Part shown: in pieces, positions 24,332-35,249 of the stretch
How the letters are laid out: every line of letters begins with the position of its first letter
How positions within the stretch are numbered: the first letter of the stretch is position 1
Assembly (NCBI GenBank): GCA_047602405.1
Contig: JASGHJ010000002.1
Location: 1,760,001-1,824,000 of the forward strand
Origin: Anaeromyxobacteraceae bacterium
GTDB taxonomy: Bacteria; Myxococcota; Myxococcia; Myxococcales; Anaeromyxobacteraceae
Length of the DNA: 64,000 nucleotides
Direction of reading: 5' to 3'
Notes under the pieces: generated by a model
Database searches by the model: none
What the model was told of the DNA's origin: nothing
What the model saw: only the letters and a program-made list of their open reading frames with translations
Translations under genes and position numbers: made by a program

Positions 24332-26958
24332 TTACCCGACCTGCGCGAGCGAGAGCCGCTCCTTCCAGCGGGTCTCCACCGCCTCCCGTGCGGCGCGATG
24401 CCCGGGGGCCTCGAGCCGCGGGTCGGCCTCCAGGAGCCCGAACGCGTCCTCGCGCGCCTCCTCCAGGATCGCCTCGTCGCGGTACAGGTCGGCGACGTCG
24501 AGGATGGGCTGGCCGGACTGCCGCGTGCCGAGGAGCTCGCCGTGGCCGCGGATCTGGAGGTCCACCCGGGCGATCTCGAAGCCGTCCTGGGTGCGCTCCA
24601 TGGCCTTCAGGCGCTCGCGCGCCTCCTGCCCCGCCTTCTTCGCCACGAGCAGGCAGAAGCTCTTCGCGGCGCCGCGCCCCACCCGGCCGCGCAGCTGGTG
24701 CAGCTGCGAGAGCCCGAAGCGCTCGGCGTGCTCCACGATCATCACGCTCGCGTTCGGCACGTCGACGCCGACCTCGATGACCGTCGTCGCGACGAGGAGC
24801 CTCGTCTGGCCCGCCCGGAAGCGGTCCATCACCGCCTGCTTCTCGTCGGCCTTCATGCGCCCGTGGAGGAGCCCCACCTCGACGCCCGGGAACGCCCGGC
24901 GGAGTGCCTCGGCGCCGCTGGTCGCGTCGGCGAGGTCGCTCTTCTCCGACTCCTCGACGAGCGGGTAGACGACGTAGACCTGCCGGCCGGCGGCGAGCTC
25001 CTTCCTCGCGACCTCGAGCGCCATCCGCCGCTGGCCGTCCGGGAAGAGCCGCGTCTCGACCGGCGTGCGCCCCGGGGGCAGCTCGTCGATCTTGGACTGG
25101 TCGAGGTCGCCGTAGAACGCGAGCGCGAGCGTGCGGGGGATGGGGGTCGCGGTCATCACGAGGACGTCGGGCCGCTTCCCCTTCGAGATGAGCCGCGCGC
25201 GCTGCAGCACGCCGAAGCGGTGCTGCTCGTCGACGACCACGATGCCGAGCTTCTCGAAGCCGACGACGTCCTCGAGGAGCGCGTGGGTGCCGACCGCGAT
25301 GCGGGCGCGCCCGTCGGCGACCGCGGCCCGGGCCTCCTTCTGGCCCTTGCCGCGGGCGGAGGCCCCGACGAGCGCGATCTGCACGCCGGTGCCCTCGAGC
25401 CAGCGGGCGAGCGTCCGGGCGTGCTGCTCGGCCAGGATCTCGGTGGGCACCATGAGCGCCGCCTGCCAGCCGGACCGAACCGCGAGCATCATCGCGGCGA
25501 AGGCGACCGCGGTCTTGCCGCTGCCGACGTCGCCCTGGAGCAGCCGGTTCATGGGCTCCCGCCGGCCCATGTCCTTCGCGATCTCCCCGAGGACGCGGCG
25601 CTGGGCGCGGGTGAGCTCGAACGGCAGGCGCGCGGTGGCGCGCCCGAGCGCCTCCGGGCCGGCCTCGAAGGCGATCCCGGCCTCCGCGCGGACGCCCTGG
25701 CGGCGCAGCCCGAGCGCGAGCTGCAGGAAGAAGACTCCTCGTAGGCGAGCCGCCGGAAACCCGGCGTCGCCCGGGCGGCGGCGGCGAGGGGGTCCGTGCC
25801 GGGCGACGGGAAGTGGGCCTCCTTCACGGCGAGCCCGCGGCCCGGCAGGCCGCGCTTCGCGCGGAGCTCGGGCGGGAGGTCGTCCACGAGCGCGGGCGCG
25901 AACTCGTCGACGAGCCGCTTCATCATCCGCCGCAGCGCGGGGTGCTGGTAGTCGGCGGGCCCGGGGTAGATGGGCACGATGCGGCCGAAGCTCGCCGAGT
26001 CGCCGGCCTGGACCTTCTCGATCTCCGGCTGGGACATCTGCTTCCTGCCGCCGAAGCCCTCGGTGACCTTGCCCCACGCGAGGAGCACGTCGCCGGCCGC
26101 GAACTGCTTCAGCCGCCAGGTGGGCGGGTTGAAGAAGACGAGCTTCAGCGCGCCGGAGGCGTCGGTCGCGGTGACCTCGAGGAGCGGGCGCCCGTTCCGC
26201 ATGCGCTGCGTGCGGGAGCCCCGCACGGTGAGGTGGACGATGCCCTCGTCGCCCGGCTTCAGGTCGGCGACCCGGCGCACGTGCGTGCGGTCCTGGTAGG
26301 CGCGCGGCCAGAACTCGAGCGCGTCGGCCACCGTGCGTCGCCCGCGGTCCTCGAGGTTCCCGCGGGTGGCCTGGTGGAACCTCAGCGTGTCGAGCGTGAC
26401 CGAGAGGGCGCGGCGGCGGGCGGCGCGCTCCTTCGGGTCCGCGGGGTCCGGGAGGGGGCTGAAGGGGGCGTCGGGCCTGGCGGGCAGCTCCGGCTCCGGG
26501 GTGGGCTTCGACTCCGGGGCGGGCTTCGACTCCGGCCCGACCCCGCTGCGCGGGTCGGGCCTACGCTCAGCCTGAGCGGTGGAGGAAGGGAACGAGCCGG
26601 GAACGGGCTCCTTCGCCTCGATCCGGCCCGCCCTCGCCACCGCCTGGACCTCCGGTGGGACCGGGATGAGCGCGGCGAGTGCGCCGGCGATCGTGGCGAG
26701 GGAGCGCCTCTGACCGTCGAGGGGCAAGGCCTCGAACCCCTCGGCCTCCGCCGCGAGCCGGCGCAGGGCCGCGGAGTCGGGCGCCCCGGCGGCGCGCGCG
26801 CGGACGACCGCGTCGCCGAGCAGCTTCCCGAAGCCCTTCAGGCGCGCCAGCCCGGCGAAGTTGTCCTTCACCGCGAAGCGCAGCGGGCGGACCACGCCCT
26901 CGAGCACCGCGGCGGCGGCCGCCGCGGGCGAGGCGCTGGGCGGGGTGGGTGGCGGCAT
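24332..26958 (-). CDS. recG: ATP-dependent DNA helicase RecG (apparent 1-nt deletion at about 25733; likely original start GTG at 28890-28888, separated by the intron)
   Basis: Wedge/OB region, RLLQGDVGSGKT, DEQHRFG, MTATPIPRTL and QLHQLRGRVGRG. Confidence 0.95.
26503..26579 (+). repeat. REP-like element inserted in frame in the RecG linker
   Basis: GGGCTTCGACTCC-ggcccgaccc..gggtcgggcc-TACGCTCAGCCTGAGCGG, with its head duplicated at 26503-26517. Same consensus as the copies at 10865 and 51882. Confidence 0.8.
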
Positions 26959-28887
26959 TGGTCGATCCTGGCGCAGTACCGGCCGTTAGGCCAGCCTGGT
27001 TCCAGGGCCTCCTTTCAAACCGTGCGTGCGGGTTTCCCGCACACGGCTTAACGATGGTCTTCGCGCGGCAGCTTGCGCGGGGTAGCGGACGCGGCCCATG
27101 CAGCGGTGCAGGCCAAGCTCGAAGAGACGTTCGAAGGGCCAAGCCTCGTACTGATAGCGAGTCCGCTGACCACCGCGCCGATGGAGCCAGCGCGTGATCC
27201 GTTCGTGCACGTACCAGTCGACGCGGTTGAACTCCCGATCCGCTGTTCCGGTCCGGAAGTAGTTGGCCCAGCCCCGGATGACGGGGTTCACGGACGCGAT
27301 GACCTCCTTCACGTCCTTCGCCCCGCTCCTGCGCACGTCCGTCAGCTCGTGGACGCGCTCGCGGACGCGGGTCATCGCCTTCGGTGAGGGCCAGCGGTGC
27401 ATGTAGTGCCGGTCGGGGCGCCGCTGGATGCTGCGCCGCTTCCGGTTCACGCACCCGAGGAAGGTGAAGCCTTCCTTTCCTCGCCTCAGATCGACGATCC
27501 GCGTCTTCTCCGGGTGCAGCGTCAGGCCGAGGCGCGCCATGATGAGCTCGACGCGCCGCCTCGCCTCGTTCACCTTCGACTCCGTCCCACACATCACGAC
27601 GAAGTCGTCGGCGTACCGCACCAGGACGCCGAGGTGCTTGCACCTCTGCGCCCAGATCCGGTCGAGCTCGTGCAGGTAGACGTTGGCGAGCAGCGGCGAG
27701 ATCACTCCACCCTGTGGCGTTCCCGCCACGGGGTTTCTCACCGTGCCCTCCTCCATCACCCCGGCCTCCAGCCACTTCCGCAGGAGCTTCAGCACCCTGC
27801 GGTCCGAGATCCGCTCCGCCACCATCGCCATCAGCTTCTGCTGGTCGATGCTGTCGAAGTACGCCTTGATGTCGGCGTCGAGCACGAAGTTGTGACCCTG
27901 GTTGCCAGCCTCGCGGATGGCCTCCAGCGCCTGCGTCGCGCTCCGCTTCGGCCGGAACCCGTAGCTCGACGACAGGAAGTCGGCCTCGAAGATCGGCTCG
28001 AGCACCAACTTCGCAGCCATCTGCGCCACGCGATCCCGCACCGTCGGGATCCCGAGCGGCCGCTGCTTTCCGTCTGCCTTCGGGATGTACCGCCGCCTCA
28101 CCGGGAGGGGGCGGTATTCGCCTGCCAGGAGATCGGCCTGGATCCCTTCGAGGAACGCCTCGACTCCGCTCTCCTCGATGGCCCGGATGGACTCGCCGTC
28201 CACCCCTGCCGCGCCTCCGTTGCTGCGCACCCGCTTCCACGCTTCCCGCAGGACGTCACCCCTGCAGATCCGGTCGTACAATGCGTGAAAGCGCCGCGTG
28301 CTGCTCCGCTTGGCGGCCACGTAAAGCCGGCGCTGGAGTTCTCGCACTTTGTCGATGGGGGTGTTGGGCCTCACGGCCATGCCCTCGCGCTTACCCCCAG
28401 TGCCGACGCGACCAAAGCAGGGCCCCTTCCCTCCGCGCGGTTATCCCGCGCCTCACCGGTACTACGGGCCCCTCGGACTCCCTTCCGGCTCCTCGCGCTT
28501 TCGACTCCCGTCTTATGCGCTCGGTCTCTGCCCGACGCGGGCTGCCGGCGAGGGTCTCTCGTGTTCCACACCGATCCTTCGCGACGTGCCGCCGCCCCTA
28601 CCCCGGGGAGCCCCAGCGTCCGTTCCGGACCAAGGACGCTGTGCATCGCCTTCGCCGTGGCATGACCGGCTCGGCGCTCCCGAACACCTTTCGGCTGAGG
28701 ATTTGTCGAGGCTGAAGCGTTCACCTTGTTGCGGCCCGCCGCTTCGCTTCCTCCGTACGTGAGGCTTTCGACGCACCGCTCGGCATGCCCGGTCTCCCGG
28801 ACAAGCTGGTGCCTGCTTCCGGGCTCTCCGGCGATTACCCGGACCGGACTCTCACCGGCTGGATTCGGTGCAGCTTCCACGACGCAC
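26956..28887 (-). mobile_element. Group II intron (IIB-like, bacterial class E/F-type) inserted after the recG start codon
   Basis: 5' end GTGCG at 28887; d3/EBS1 hairpin at 28654-28670; D3; D5 AAGCCGTGTGCGGGAAACCCGCACGCACGGTTTG at 27016-27049 (AGC triad); D6 ending GACCAATG; RT ORF in D4. Confidence 0.92.
26986..28380 (-). CDS. ltrA: Group II intron reverse transcriptase/maturase (no HNH endonuclease domain)
   Basis: [61 protein letters not shown] and X-domain GWANYF. The ORF runs through D5 into D6. Confidence 0.96.
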
Positions 28888-28907
28888 CACGCCGGGATCC
28901 TACCGGC

Positions 28908-29410
28908 TCACTCCGACTCTGCGACCTCGTCCTCGACGAACGCGATGGACTTGATCGCGTACTCCCGCTGCCCGCCGGGGGTGCGCACGGTCACCGCGTC
29001 GCCCTCCTCGCGGCCGATGAGCGCCCGTGCGATCGGGCTCGTGACCGAGATGCGGCCGAGCTTCAGGTCGGCCTCGATCTCCCCCACGATGCGGTAGGTG
29101 ACCTCGTCGCCCGAGTCGGTGTCCTCGAGCTCGACCGTGGCGCCGAACACGACGCGGTCGCCGGCGACCTTCGTCACGTCGATGACCTCGGCCGAGGCGA
29201 TCGAGTGCTCGACCTGGAGGATGCGGCCCTCGACGTGGGACTGCTTCTCCTTCGCCGCGTGGTACTCGGCGTTCTCGGAGAGGTCCCCGTGGGAGCGCGC
29301 CTCGGCGATCTCCTTCACGATTCTTGGGGCGCTCCACGGCCTTGAGCCGCTTGAGCTCTTCCTTCAGGCGGGAGAGCCCGCTTCTTCGTCATCGGGACGC
29401 GATCGGACAT
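28908..29410 (-). CDS. greA: Transcription elongation factor GreA (apparent indels at about 29320 and 29382)
   Basis: MSDRVPMT..., [14 protein letters not shown] and [13 protein letters not shown]. Confidence 0.93.

Positions 29411-29516: not shown

Positions 29517-29520
<4 letters not shown>
29492..29520 (-). promoter_or_regulatory. Candidate sigma70 promoter for greA
   Basis: TTGACA-N17-TACTGA, overlapping the carB stop. Confidence 0.5.
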
Positions 29521-32758
<3,238 letters not shown>

Positions 32759-32820
32759 TGGGGCCGGGAATCTAGCACGCCGGTCCGACCGTGCCAGCGG
32801 CTCCTTCGCCCCGGCCGCCC

Positions 32821-33274
32821 CTAGCCGCCGAGCTTCTCGGCGGCCTCCTTCTCGCGGGCCGCACCGAGCGCCTCGAGGAGCTTCTTCGCCTTGGGGAAGT
32901 TCTCGAGGAGGAGCGCCACCACGGGCAGGGGGAAGACCACCGCCGTGAGCTCCGTCCGGGCCACGAGCGACCAGGCCCGCCCGCTCCCGAGGAACGCCCC
33001 GGCGCCGTGGAACCCGCCGCGCTCCAGGTGGGCCAGCTCGACGGGGCCCGCCGGCGACCCGACCCGCACCGAATCCCGCCCCGTCGACCACCAGGACGAG
33101 CTGCTGATCGTCGCCCTCGGGGGACACGACCTCGCCCGCCTCCCAGGTCGCCGCGCGGGCGACCTTGAGCAGGTCCGCCCGGGCGTCGGGATCGAGGGAG
33201 CGGAAGACGAGGCTCGCCTCGACGAAGGCCGTCGTGGCGAGGTCGCCCCAGACTTCCCGGGCCGGGCTGGCCAT
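32821..33274 (-). CDS. Stand-alone cyclic-nucleotide-binding domain protein (apparent indel at about 33073)
   Basis: LVFRSLD...WEAGEVV...LVLVVDG/SVRV...[12 protein letters not shown]; cNMP-fold pattern with a degenerate phosphate-binding cassette. Confidence 0.75.
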
Positions 33275-33307
33275 GCCCCGGAGGCTAGCATAGGGTCGAG
33301 GGCTTCT

Positions 33308-34024
33308 ATGAACCTTGGCATCGTGCTCGCGGTCGGAATGGTGGTCGTGCAGGAGCAGGAACCGGTGCAGGTGCCGAAGCAGGAGCCGGTTCAGGTGCCG
33401 GTTCAGGAGCAGGTGCAGAAGCAGCCCGGGCAGGATCGGGAGCCGGAGCAGGGTTCCAGGCCGGTCCCGGAACCGAAGCCCGCGCCGCCCGCTACCACCG
33501 CCCCTGCCGCTCCTCCTGTCCGTCGCCCTGCCGCTCCCGCTGCAGCTTCTGCTCCCCCTGCCGCTTCCGCTGCACCACCTGCCCCTGCTCGCGTTCCTGT
33601 TCCTGCACCGGCTCCCGTTCCTGCACCGGCTCCTGCTCCTGCCCGACCCGACCGCGAGCTCGCCGCCCGCGCCGCCCTCGCGTTCCTGGACGCCCTCGTG
33701 GCCGCCGATCCGGTCGCCCTGACCGCCGCGAGCGCGTCCCCCTTCAGCTTCGATGGCGACGTGCGCATCGGCCCCGACGCGGTCCGCCGGGCCTGGCGCG
33801 AGGCCCTCGCGGCGCGCCGGCCCTCGGCCCCCGATCGCCTCGACGACCTCGAGCTCCTCACCGTCGCCGAGGCCACCCAGCGACTGGGCGCCGCGCCCGC
33901 ACGGATCGCGCCCCTGGCCCAGCGCAGCGCCTGGATCGCGATCGCGAACGTGTCGGGGCGCCCGGTCGTCCTCTTCCTCGCCCGGGAGGGCGGGAAGGTG
34001 GTGGTGAGCGGGATGCACGACTGA
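33308..34024 (+). CDS. Hypothetical exported protein with a Q/E/P/V- and P/A-rich low-complexity N-terminal half
   Basis: Hydrophobic start, repeats, then a globular NTF2-like-looking C-terminal domain ([10 protein letters not shown]...PFSFDG...VRRAW). Confidence 0.7.
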
Positions 34025-34045
34025 CCTGCGGCCCTGCGGCCGCGG

Positions 34046-35249
34046 TCAGCCCAGCGACCTCGCCATCTCGAGGATGCGGTCGCAGCCCTTGTCGATCTGC
34101 TCCATCGACGTCGCGAACGAGAGCCGCAGGTGCCCCGGCGCGCCGAACGCGCTCCCCGGGACCACCGCGACCTGGTGCCTGTCGAGGAGGAGGTCGGCGA
34201 GCGCCGAGTCGGTGCCGAGCGGCGCGGCCGCCCCGGGCGCCTTCTTGGCGAGGAGCGCGGTCACGTTCGGGAACGCGTAGAACGCGCCCGCCGGGTCGAA
34301 GCACTTCATCCCCGGCACCGCGTTCAGGCGCTCCACGATGTGCTTGCGGCGCCCGTCGAAGGTGACCCGCATCTTCTCGACCTCGGCCTCGACCCCGGGC
34401 AGCGTGAGCGCCGCGAGGGCCGCCTTCTGCGCGATGGAGGTCGCGTTCGAGGTCGAGTTGTCCTGGAGCTTCTGCATCGCGGCGATGAGCGGCTGCGGCG
34501 CGGCCGTCCAGCCGATGCGCCAGCCGGTCATCGAGAAGGTCTTCGAGGCGCCGTTCACGAGCGCGACCTGGCCGCGCAGCGACGGCTCGAGGTCGAGCAC
34601 GTTCTCGAACTTCCCGCGGTAGACGAGCTTGTCGTAGATGTCGTCGGAGACGAGGAGGACGTCCTTCCCCTTCGCGAGGCGGATGACGGTCTCGAGCGTG
34701 CGCCGCGAGAGCATGGCGCCGGTGGGGTTCGACGGGCTGTTGAGGATGACCGCCCGCGTGCGCGGCGAGAAGGCTGCCTCGATCTGCGCGTCGGACGGGT
34801 CGAAGCCCTGCTCGACGGTGGTCTCGACGACGACCGGCGTGCCGCCGGACACCCGGACCATGTCGGCGTAGCTCACCCAGTACGGCGCGAAGATGACGAC
34901 CTCGTCGCCGTCGTTCAGGAGCGCCTGGAACAGGTTGAAGAAGCGCGTGCTTGCCGCCACAGGAGACGAGCACCTCGTTCGGCGCGTACTTCAGCCGGTG
35001 GTCGCGCTCGATGGAGGCGGCGATCGCCTCGCGCAGCTCGGGGATGCCGTTCGTCGGCGTGTACTTCGTGAAGCCCTGGTCGAGCGCCTGCTTCGCCGCG
35101 TCCTTCACGATCGCGGGCGTGTCGAAGTCCGGCTCGCCGGCGCCGAACCCGACGACGTCGATGCCCTTCGACTTCATCTCCCGCGCCTTGGCGGTGATCG
35201 CGAGGGTCGGCGAGGGCTTCACGGCATCCAGGCGCTTGGCGAGCTTCAT
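34046..35249 (-). CDS. Aspartate aminotransferase (class I; apparent indel at about 34941)
   Basis: FGAGEPDFDTP, NSPSNPTG, SDDIY and SKTFSMTGWRIG. Confidence 0.93.

Follow-up and report, generated by a model that had tools for sequence, protein, structure and literature searches.

A group II intron that apparently inserts behind start codons just below −10 boxes and ends in AUG

The window analyzed here is a 64,000-nucleotide (nt) stretch of the genome of an Anaeromyxobacteraceae bacterium (GenBank assembly GCA_047602405.1, contig JASGHJ010000002.1, positions 1,760,001 to 1,824,000; positions below count from the first letter of the window), and our subject is a group II intron that lies between greA and recG on its minus strand. 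Read along that strand, the greA stop codon is followed by 5 bases, the hexamer TAGGAT, the bases CCCGGC, a GTG codon, and then the intron, which starts GTGCG at 28887. The intron ends GATCGACCAATG, with CCGCCA following, and the A at 26962 is seven nt from the G at 26956, as an earlier note on this DNA had said of the candidate branch point. The hallmarks of group II introns are present: an open reading frame (ORF) for a reverse transcriptase (RT)/maturase in domain 4 (D4), a D1–D4 core, a D5 catalytic triad, and a bulged A in D6. In profile searches, the RT ORF matched RVT_1 and GIIM as well as TIGR04416 (434 bits, cut-off 300) and gave no match to an HNH/endonuclease domain. Rfam RF02003 finds D1–D4 with 85.9 bits (the match starts at intron nt 27), and RF00029 finds D5 with 39.8 bits, slightly below the 40-bit cut-off. 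Compared with the boundary consensus GUGYG...AY (PMC4028801, in the portion consulted), the 5′ GUGCG fits, whereas the 3′ terminus is AUG, for which a C-G gamma pair compensates. This is a variant of the group II boundary and no ground for excluding the element from group II introns.

The earlier note, made from the letters alone, had proposed that the intron homes to start codons and re-supplies the start of recG. All of its sequence statements and coordinates hold (the 5′ flank, d3 hairpin, J2/3, and 3′ end were re-read). The feature that it drew from 26956 to 28902 keeps its 3′ end, although 28902 is the first T of TAGGAT, so that 15 nt of flank were included; the first intron base, G1, is 28887.

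The genome contains eight copies of the intron that are >99% identical. All begin GTGCG and end CCAATG (GACCAATG), and each has a start codon directly 5′, which is ATG in seven cases and GTG in one (recG). The window copy is 1,932 nt long, six others are 1,931 nt, and one (G000:C1:1300399-1302089) is 1,691 nt, with a 240-nt deletion inside the RT ORF and intact ends. Downstream, the terminal ATG and the host ORF share a frame in 8/8 copies (GC content at third codon positions, GC3, 0.94-0.99), and the first exon base after the intron (+1) is C in seven of them. Neither recG nor housekeeping genes in general hold a special place among the hosts: the remaining seven copies lie in galT, an MGS-domain gene, the genes of a LysR regulator and of two histidine kinases, and two unnamed genes.

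In the closest relative (G010), empty alleles of recG and four other hosts were checked, and in 5/5 the start codon is joined directly to the next codon, with no sign of the extra G that had been suggested as a test of the boundary. The empty recG allele reads GGCGTG|CCG and, as recG natively starts with GTG, the A in the 3′ ATG is an intron base. A canonical AY boundary, with the final G given to exon 2, can be rejected: it is out of frame in 8/8 copies (GC3 0.41-0.61, versus the values given above) and absent from the five empty alleles. Duplication of the target codon can also be rejected, as the end is ATG for a GTG target here and in loci L224 and L227, and GTG for an ATG target in L038 and L043. 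Comparison of these sequences shows insertion exactly at ATG/GTG|N, without target duplication, and the combination of eight near-identical copies with five empty alleles indicates recent mobility at precise sites. Separately, in a genome of the same genus (G051), a more distant intron with gamma G (67% over the RT) is present eight times, the copies being identical.

Relatives were sampled as 160 loci from genome and metagenome collections, plus further copies from 15 of those genomes. The resulting 214 RTs were reduced to 150 representatives, and in a tree 112 of these form one clade with the window intron (support 0.994). The clade has 173 members, which yield 128 unique sites, from 85 lineages, whose 5′ end could be placed and that have 22 nt of flanking sequence (5′ ends of relatives were found from intron-internal motifs). 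Record titles place the relatives in Myxococcota, Acidobacteriota, Planctomycetota, Pseudomonadota, Actinomycetota, and others, and named carriers are Nannocystis pusilla, Sorangium sp. So ce176, and Embleya sp. The insertion site follows ATG, GTG, or TTG at 126/128 unique sites and in 83/85 lineages. As anticipated in the earlier note, most homologs keep CAU in exon-binding site 1 (EBS1) and a terminal ATG, retain gamma C with terminal G, and sit at start codons. The frame after the intron end is open for 100 codons at 96/115 sites (20 and 56 for the other two frames); about five of the remaining sites are mislocated ends and a few are real, e.g., L260, which reads ATG-TAA.

Covariation was computed over 101 sites, weighted by lineage. 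The +1 exon base covaries with intron nt 290, identified as EBS3 (mutual information, MI, 1.29 bits; 88% Watson-Crick), exon base −4 with nt 227 (MI 0.60), and exon base −3 with nt 226 (MI 0.29); bases −5 and −6 showed no covariation with the intron across the family sites. For this reason EBS1 comprises four bases (CAUG). The six-base pairing first proposed is real in the window copy but is ruled out as a property of the family. Intron ends were located by D6 pairing (24 ends lack a gamma call, and several of the misses are mislocated ends), and gamma C accompanies a last G in 118/125 ends and gamma G a last C in 18/22, as a pairing of gamma C with the terminal G would predict. Firmicutes sisters show both states (ACTCTAG with C, ACTCTAC with G). 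Finally, outgroup introns, and L106 with its target AAT and EBS1 AUUA, pair the first EBS1 base with the final base of the exon. On sequence grounds, these three covariations (EBS3 with +1, gamma with the last intron base, EBS1 with the last exon base) settle the boundary as ATG| rather than AT|G...AAT|G.

Two variations in intron ends should be mentioned. Paenibacillus-type sisters that sit after terminator-like hairpins (L084, L089, L104, L156, and L293) end AG and have gamma C, which means that a C-G gamma pair also occurs outside the AUG clade. Some members, mostly actinobacterial (L049, L061, L078, L094, L102, and others), start UUGCG or UCGCG in place of GUGCG; G1 may be free to vary in these introns as the penultimate base is U, not A.

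The start codon is only part of the target. The motif TANNNT lies 6-8 nt before the start codon at 116/128 sites and in 78/85 lineages, compared with 122/17,689 flank ATG/GTG codons in the control. In the window genome, it is found at 7/8 intron copies versus 352/4,866 called starts, at most 415 (~8%; p about 2e-7), where the baseline comes from a home-made gene caller. The boxed starts of the genome show a sharp peak at spacer 6, and recG keeps TANNNT in relatives without the intron. A Shine-Dalgarno reading of the motif was rejected, given that the inner bases vary (36 different hexamers) and the T, A, and T are constant. In the part of PMC3160421 consulted, TANNNT about 12 bp before the start marks leaderless genes, and the host genes here are probably leaderless. 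Thus, homing to start codons stands in a narrower form: judged from the flanks, the target is a start codon just below a −10 box, not any start codon. The box is retained in L106 (73% identical RT) and L170, where insertion is after AAT or AAA with matching EBS1 (AUUA and UUUG; L106 ends AAAG), so that the promoter link can outlast the start-codon target.

The intron appears to read part of the box as well. Intron nt 186 is A in 85/85 lineages, opposite the last T of the box, and for nt 187, 188, and 189 complementarity to box positions 5, 4, and 3, respectively, holds in 60, 33, and 33 of 78 lineages (shuffled means 30, 17.5, and 21, reached by 0, 0, and 11 of 5,000 shuffles). Box position 5 covaries with nt 187 (MI 0.68), and when this EBS2-like segment is slid along the box, other registers give 53-73 pairs versus 126 in the actual register. 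The TA of the box is unexplained by pairing, as only 13 and 5 of 78 lineages are complementary. The genome has 267 pairing-competent sites, only 30 of them with a T in the first position of the box, opposite a C of the intron, and 7/8 copies are at such sites (p about 2e-6). That the copies are at first-T sites, even though few pairing-competent sites have this T, argues for a preference for true promoters beyond pairing, with the extra specificity perhaps supplied by the open complex, by the RT protein, or through selection.

The frame that starts at the host start codon is open across D1–D3 in 42/85 lineages (38 fused to the RT, four ending at the RT start), and the other two frames are open to the RT in 0/85. 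In this genome the leader has 172 codons in seven copies; in the window copy it ends at codon 13 through an extra A (see below). If up to two re-initiations are allowed, a chain of frames reaches the RT in 73/85 lineages, which is a weak test given control frames of 19 and 57. At the other end, a frame (the RT, or a mini-ORF that begins where the RT stops) closes no more than about 30 nt from the terminal codon in 66/69 lineages versus 2/18 outgroup introns, and the window copy has its RT stop 27 nt before the terminal ATG. Among the 55 lineages with a mini-ORF, 51 ATG-started frames end near the terminal codon, versus 10 frames without ATG. A built-in promoter in D6 was considered and rejected, as TANNNT precedes the terminal codon in just 13/94 lineages.

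The reading that we consider probable is as follows. An endonuclease-less intron sits behind the start codon of probably leaderless genes, likely recognizes them by base pairing to that codon, to the base following it, and to part of the −10 box, likely uses the host's promoter and start to express its RT, and with its spare ATG likely returns ribosomes to the host gene. Covariation suggests pairing of EBS1 CAUG with C-ATG, of EBS3 with +1, and of the EBS2-like segment with the 3′ half of the box. Transcription would start at or near the A of the AUG, leaving a 5′ exon of about 3 nt; because the box would be absent from such an RNA, EBS2 would act as a DNA-targeting element only. Most likely, the ribonucleoprotein (RNP) enters the top strand by reverse splicing, immediately behind a leaderless promoter's start codon, with a working promoter or the RT protein supplying the specificity for the TA that pairing leaves unread. 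Ribosomes from the host AUG would then read the leader, fused or coupled to the RT, in frames that are conserved, and the RT or a coupled mini-ORF would stop a short way ahead of the terminal AUG, so that ribosomes could re-initiate there on RNA that has not been spliced. Splicing would restore the native message, perhaps poorly given so short an exon. We infer from the chain of reading frames that the host gene could survive with or without splicing. Positions of the parts involved are given in Table 1.

Table 1. Features of the greA–recG locus (positions within the window)
Feature	Position	Strand	Remarks
Group II intron	26956..28887	minus	1,932 nt, GTGCG...CCAATG
Probable host −10 box TAGGAT, also IBS2-like target (IBS, intron-binding site)	28897..28902	minus	6 nt before start codon
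Original recG start codon GTG = 5′ exon end	28888..28890	minus	G010 empty allele starts GTG; EBS1 covariation
IBS1 = CGTG	28888-28891	minus
EBS2-like segment AUCCU, intron nt 186-190	28698..28702	minus	complementary to AGGAT of box; covaries with box positions 5, 4, 3; predicted pairing
d3 hairpin, loop GTCATGCCA	28654..28670	minus	fold
EBS1 = CAUG	28664-28661	minus	covaries with exon −3 and −4
EBS3 = G, intron nt 290	28598	minus	pairs first base after terminal ATG
J2/3 CGA, gamma = C at 28475	28473..28475	minus	covaries with last intron base
Leader frame from host start codon across D1–D3	28371..28890	minus	stop overlaps RT start (ATGGCCGTGA) in 7 other copies
RT/maturase ORF, 464 aa, YADD	26986..28380	minus	no endonuclease domain; through D5, stops in D6
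Domain 5 with AGC triad	27015..27051	minus	Rfam match and fold
Domain 6, bulged A at 26962	26956..27012	minus	AGGA 7 nt before terminal ATG (26958-26956)
recG, in frame with terminal ATG	24332..26958	minus	split by 1-nt deletion near 25735 relative to G010
greA (3′ part)	28908..29318	minus	stop codon 5 nt upstream of box

More tentatively, and with somewhat less confidence than an even chance would deserve, the element can be seen as a promoter-reading retroelement, whose RNA, carrying an anti-start codon and an anti-(−10 box), enters the RNA polymerase bubble at leaderless promoters. It would be translation-transparent throughout, its 3-nt exon need not splice for host function, and it would descend from terminator-targeting ancestors, having shifted from the end to the start of transcription units.

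Several observations weigh against the probable reading. A strict box is lacking at 12/128 sites, including one own copy (GAGGAT) and the tandem L122, and since greA ends 5 nt above the box, read-through could give a long 5′ exon at the recG locus. The relatives are not independent, and the shuffles therefore overstate the significance of the box/EBS2 pairing. There is no frame chain to the RT in 12/85 lineages, the control for the multi-step test being weak, and a Shine-Dalgarno-like word precedes the terminal codon in just 31/94 lineages and sits in a D6 stem. Two members end AAG (L106 with target AAT, L121 with target GTG). No long downstream ORF follows some targets (L260, L152, and L059), so host rescue is not required at every site. 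No transcript start, spliced junction, lariat, or protein was seen. Finally, no RNA run contained as much as half of the stretch, and four runs gave relatives only; a contig from run X17 (1,927 nt, depth 86, 163 differing letters) spans 26956-28864 but, as contigs reveal no ends and may be DNA, was not used as support.

Two unusual arrangements were seen among relatives. L122 is a member directly behind the terminal ATG of an apparent other member, with no box at the usual distance. In L029, L217, L221, and L225 (G056), D5 is followed not by D6 but by sequence resembling the 5′ end of another group II intron, possibly a twintron.

Group II introns without an endonuclease are known to use replication-fork DNA. 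The RT here has no endonuclease domain, and a real, if minority, possibility is that the RNP needs no active promoter but enters single-stranded DNA at replication forks by pairing alone, the promoter bias then arising from the RT reading TA or from selection for transcribed, harmless copies. This departs from the promoter-based reading only in the source of the remaining specificity, i.e., the unpaired TA step. All four copies on contig C2 are on the leading strand by GC skew (the skew of contig C1 is too flat to judge), but genes too favor that strand. The first-T bias of the young copies, at a position where the intron base opposite is C, is not what pairing alone would give, and selection after insertion would need to be very strong to produce it.

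An unlikely explanation of the terminal AUG is that it serves the ribozyme, as an IBS1 mimic bound by EBS1, with the lariat released by hydrolysis once the 3-nt exon is lost. EBS1 CAC occurs with a GTG end in 3/7 lineages, versus 2/60 for CAT with a GTG end (Fisher p 0.007, although kin are not independent), and a 94%-identical copy in G010 has changed EBS1 and the terminal codon together. The AUUA and AAAG of L106 also fit, but an AAG end may be a return to the usual penultimate A; moreover, three CAC lineages end ATG and one AAG, and base −4 is mostly A, which is unable to pair with the G of EBS1. The mimic also leaves unexplained the conserved frame that stops before the terminal codon, and this frame makes a translation relay more likely than a role of the AUG in structure alone.

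Insertion between the T and G of the start codon (intron G-GTGCG...AAT, with a canonical AY end) would yield the same spliced product, and the two parses look alike when a single locus is read; the groEL clade is on record as inserting within a codon (PMC12584367, in its consulted portion). L051 (ATT|TCGCG, its ATG end being normal) is consistent with this parse, or else with a point change that came later. Nevertheless, we regard it as very improbable, as EBS3 covaries with the base that follows the G, EBS1 pairs through its first base with the last exon base (T meets A in L106), gamma varies in step with the final base, and in AG- and AC-ending sisters the branch A likewise lies 7 nt from the G. 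That the junctions are assembly artefacts, as single-base errors nearby (recG near 25735, intron nt 22) might suggest, is already refuted by the agreement of eight copies, five empty alleles, and >100 sites in other genomes.

The errors themselves deserve comment. The extra A of the window copy, at intron nt 22-23 (near 28866), lies at a GATC site, is absent from the seven other copies, and is probably a read error. Concern about an indel at the GATC sites near the junctions was therefore partly apt: the junctions agree in 8/8 copies, but a probable error is found at a GATC inside the intron. The split of recG near 25735 is probably also a read error. Frames are broken elsewhere in the window as well (the carB and aminotransferase genes at 29517-35249, and about 29340-29400), and all of these breaks, including those at 25735 and 28866, are probably uncorrected long-read errors.

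If start codons below promoters are the target, as we conclude, bacterial group II introns would have a third way of choosing targets, the first codon under a promoter, in addition to long homing sites and terminators. Introns of this family are natural examples of an AUG end combined with C-G gamma pairing and of frames kept open through catalytic RNA, and they raise the questions of how short a 5′ exon can be and whether an endonuclease-less intron uses the transcription bubble. Every insertion marks a probable leaderless promoter, so that leaderless initiation and re-initiation become approachable in phyla with little start-site data, and the presence of the family in named strains makes study in culture possible.

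With regard to known systems, an RT tree (53 sequences, FastTree) places the clade among two unclassified introns, beside g2/g3 and g1, with low node support. The two are a Peptoclostridium plasmid intron (48% identical to the window RT) and Rh.sp.I1 (45%; Toro and Martinez-Abarca 2013, PMC3552965, consulted in part). Unlike the window clade, they end AC or AU, have gamma G or A, and are not at start-codon sites. Firmicutes sisters of the window clade sit after terminator-like hairpins, as is reported for the endonuclease-less unclassified types U1/U2 in the consulted portion of Miura et al. (2022; PMC8919778), a portion in which the words “promoter” and “leaderless” are absent. By sequence, the element is an endonuclease-less intron that may belong to this unclassified lineage, at low node support and with U1 and U2 not told apart. 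A literature search, judged from listings and the starts of abstracts and with subscription papers outside its scope, found no description of start-codon or promoter targeting.

Class C (IIC) introns resemble the element in lacking an endonuclease, in their short EBS1, and in targeting a transcription signal (they insert after intrinsic terminators, according to the part of PMC4028801 already cited), and the best PDB matches are class C RTs (7uim, 6ar1). The window intron differs in its AGC triad, full-length D5, EBS2-like element, and a promoter in place of a terminator; its RT is 37% identical to the single class C reference, which falls outside the window group, and its flanks have the box and start codon with no terminator hairpin. 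The FADD motif that defines g2 (class F) in the consulted text of PMC3552965 is replaced by YADD. In C.te.I1 of Clostridium tetani (PMC3919590, from the portion seen), downstream genes have annotated starts in D5/6 and unspliced RNA dominates; unlike the window intron, it is ORF-less, is at one locus, has a shifted 5′ splice site, and does not home to starts.

The earlier note had mentioned the groEL-type introns as a lineage known from the boundaries of housekeeping genes. These form a specialized IIB1/CL1 clade at initiation or termination codons (Avi.groEL and EcKTE56.groEL; PMC12584367, as far as consulted), and the likeness is considerable, in that insertion is at or beside start/stop codons and a replacement codon is supplied (UAA to UAG for groEL). 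However, that clade has a CL1 RT with an endonuclease and a 300-700 nt 5′ insertion, and the window intron has neither: its RT starts 507 nt after G1, the Rfam D1 match runs from nt 27, and the RT is 33% identical to the CL1A reference and distant from it in the tree. The resemblance at the level of codons is convergence.

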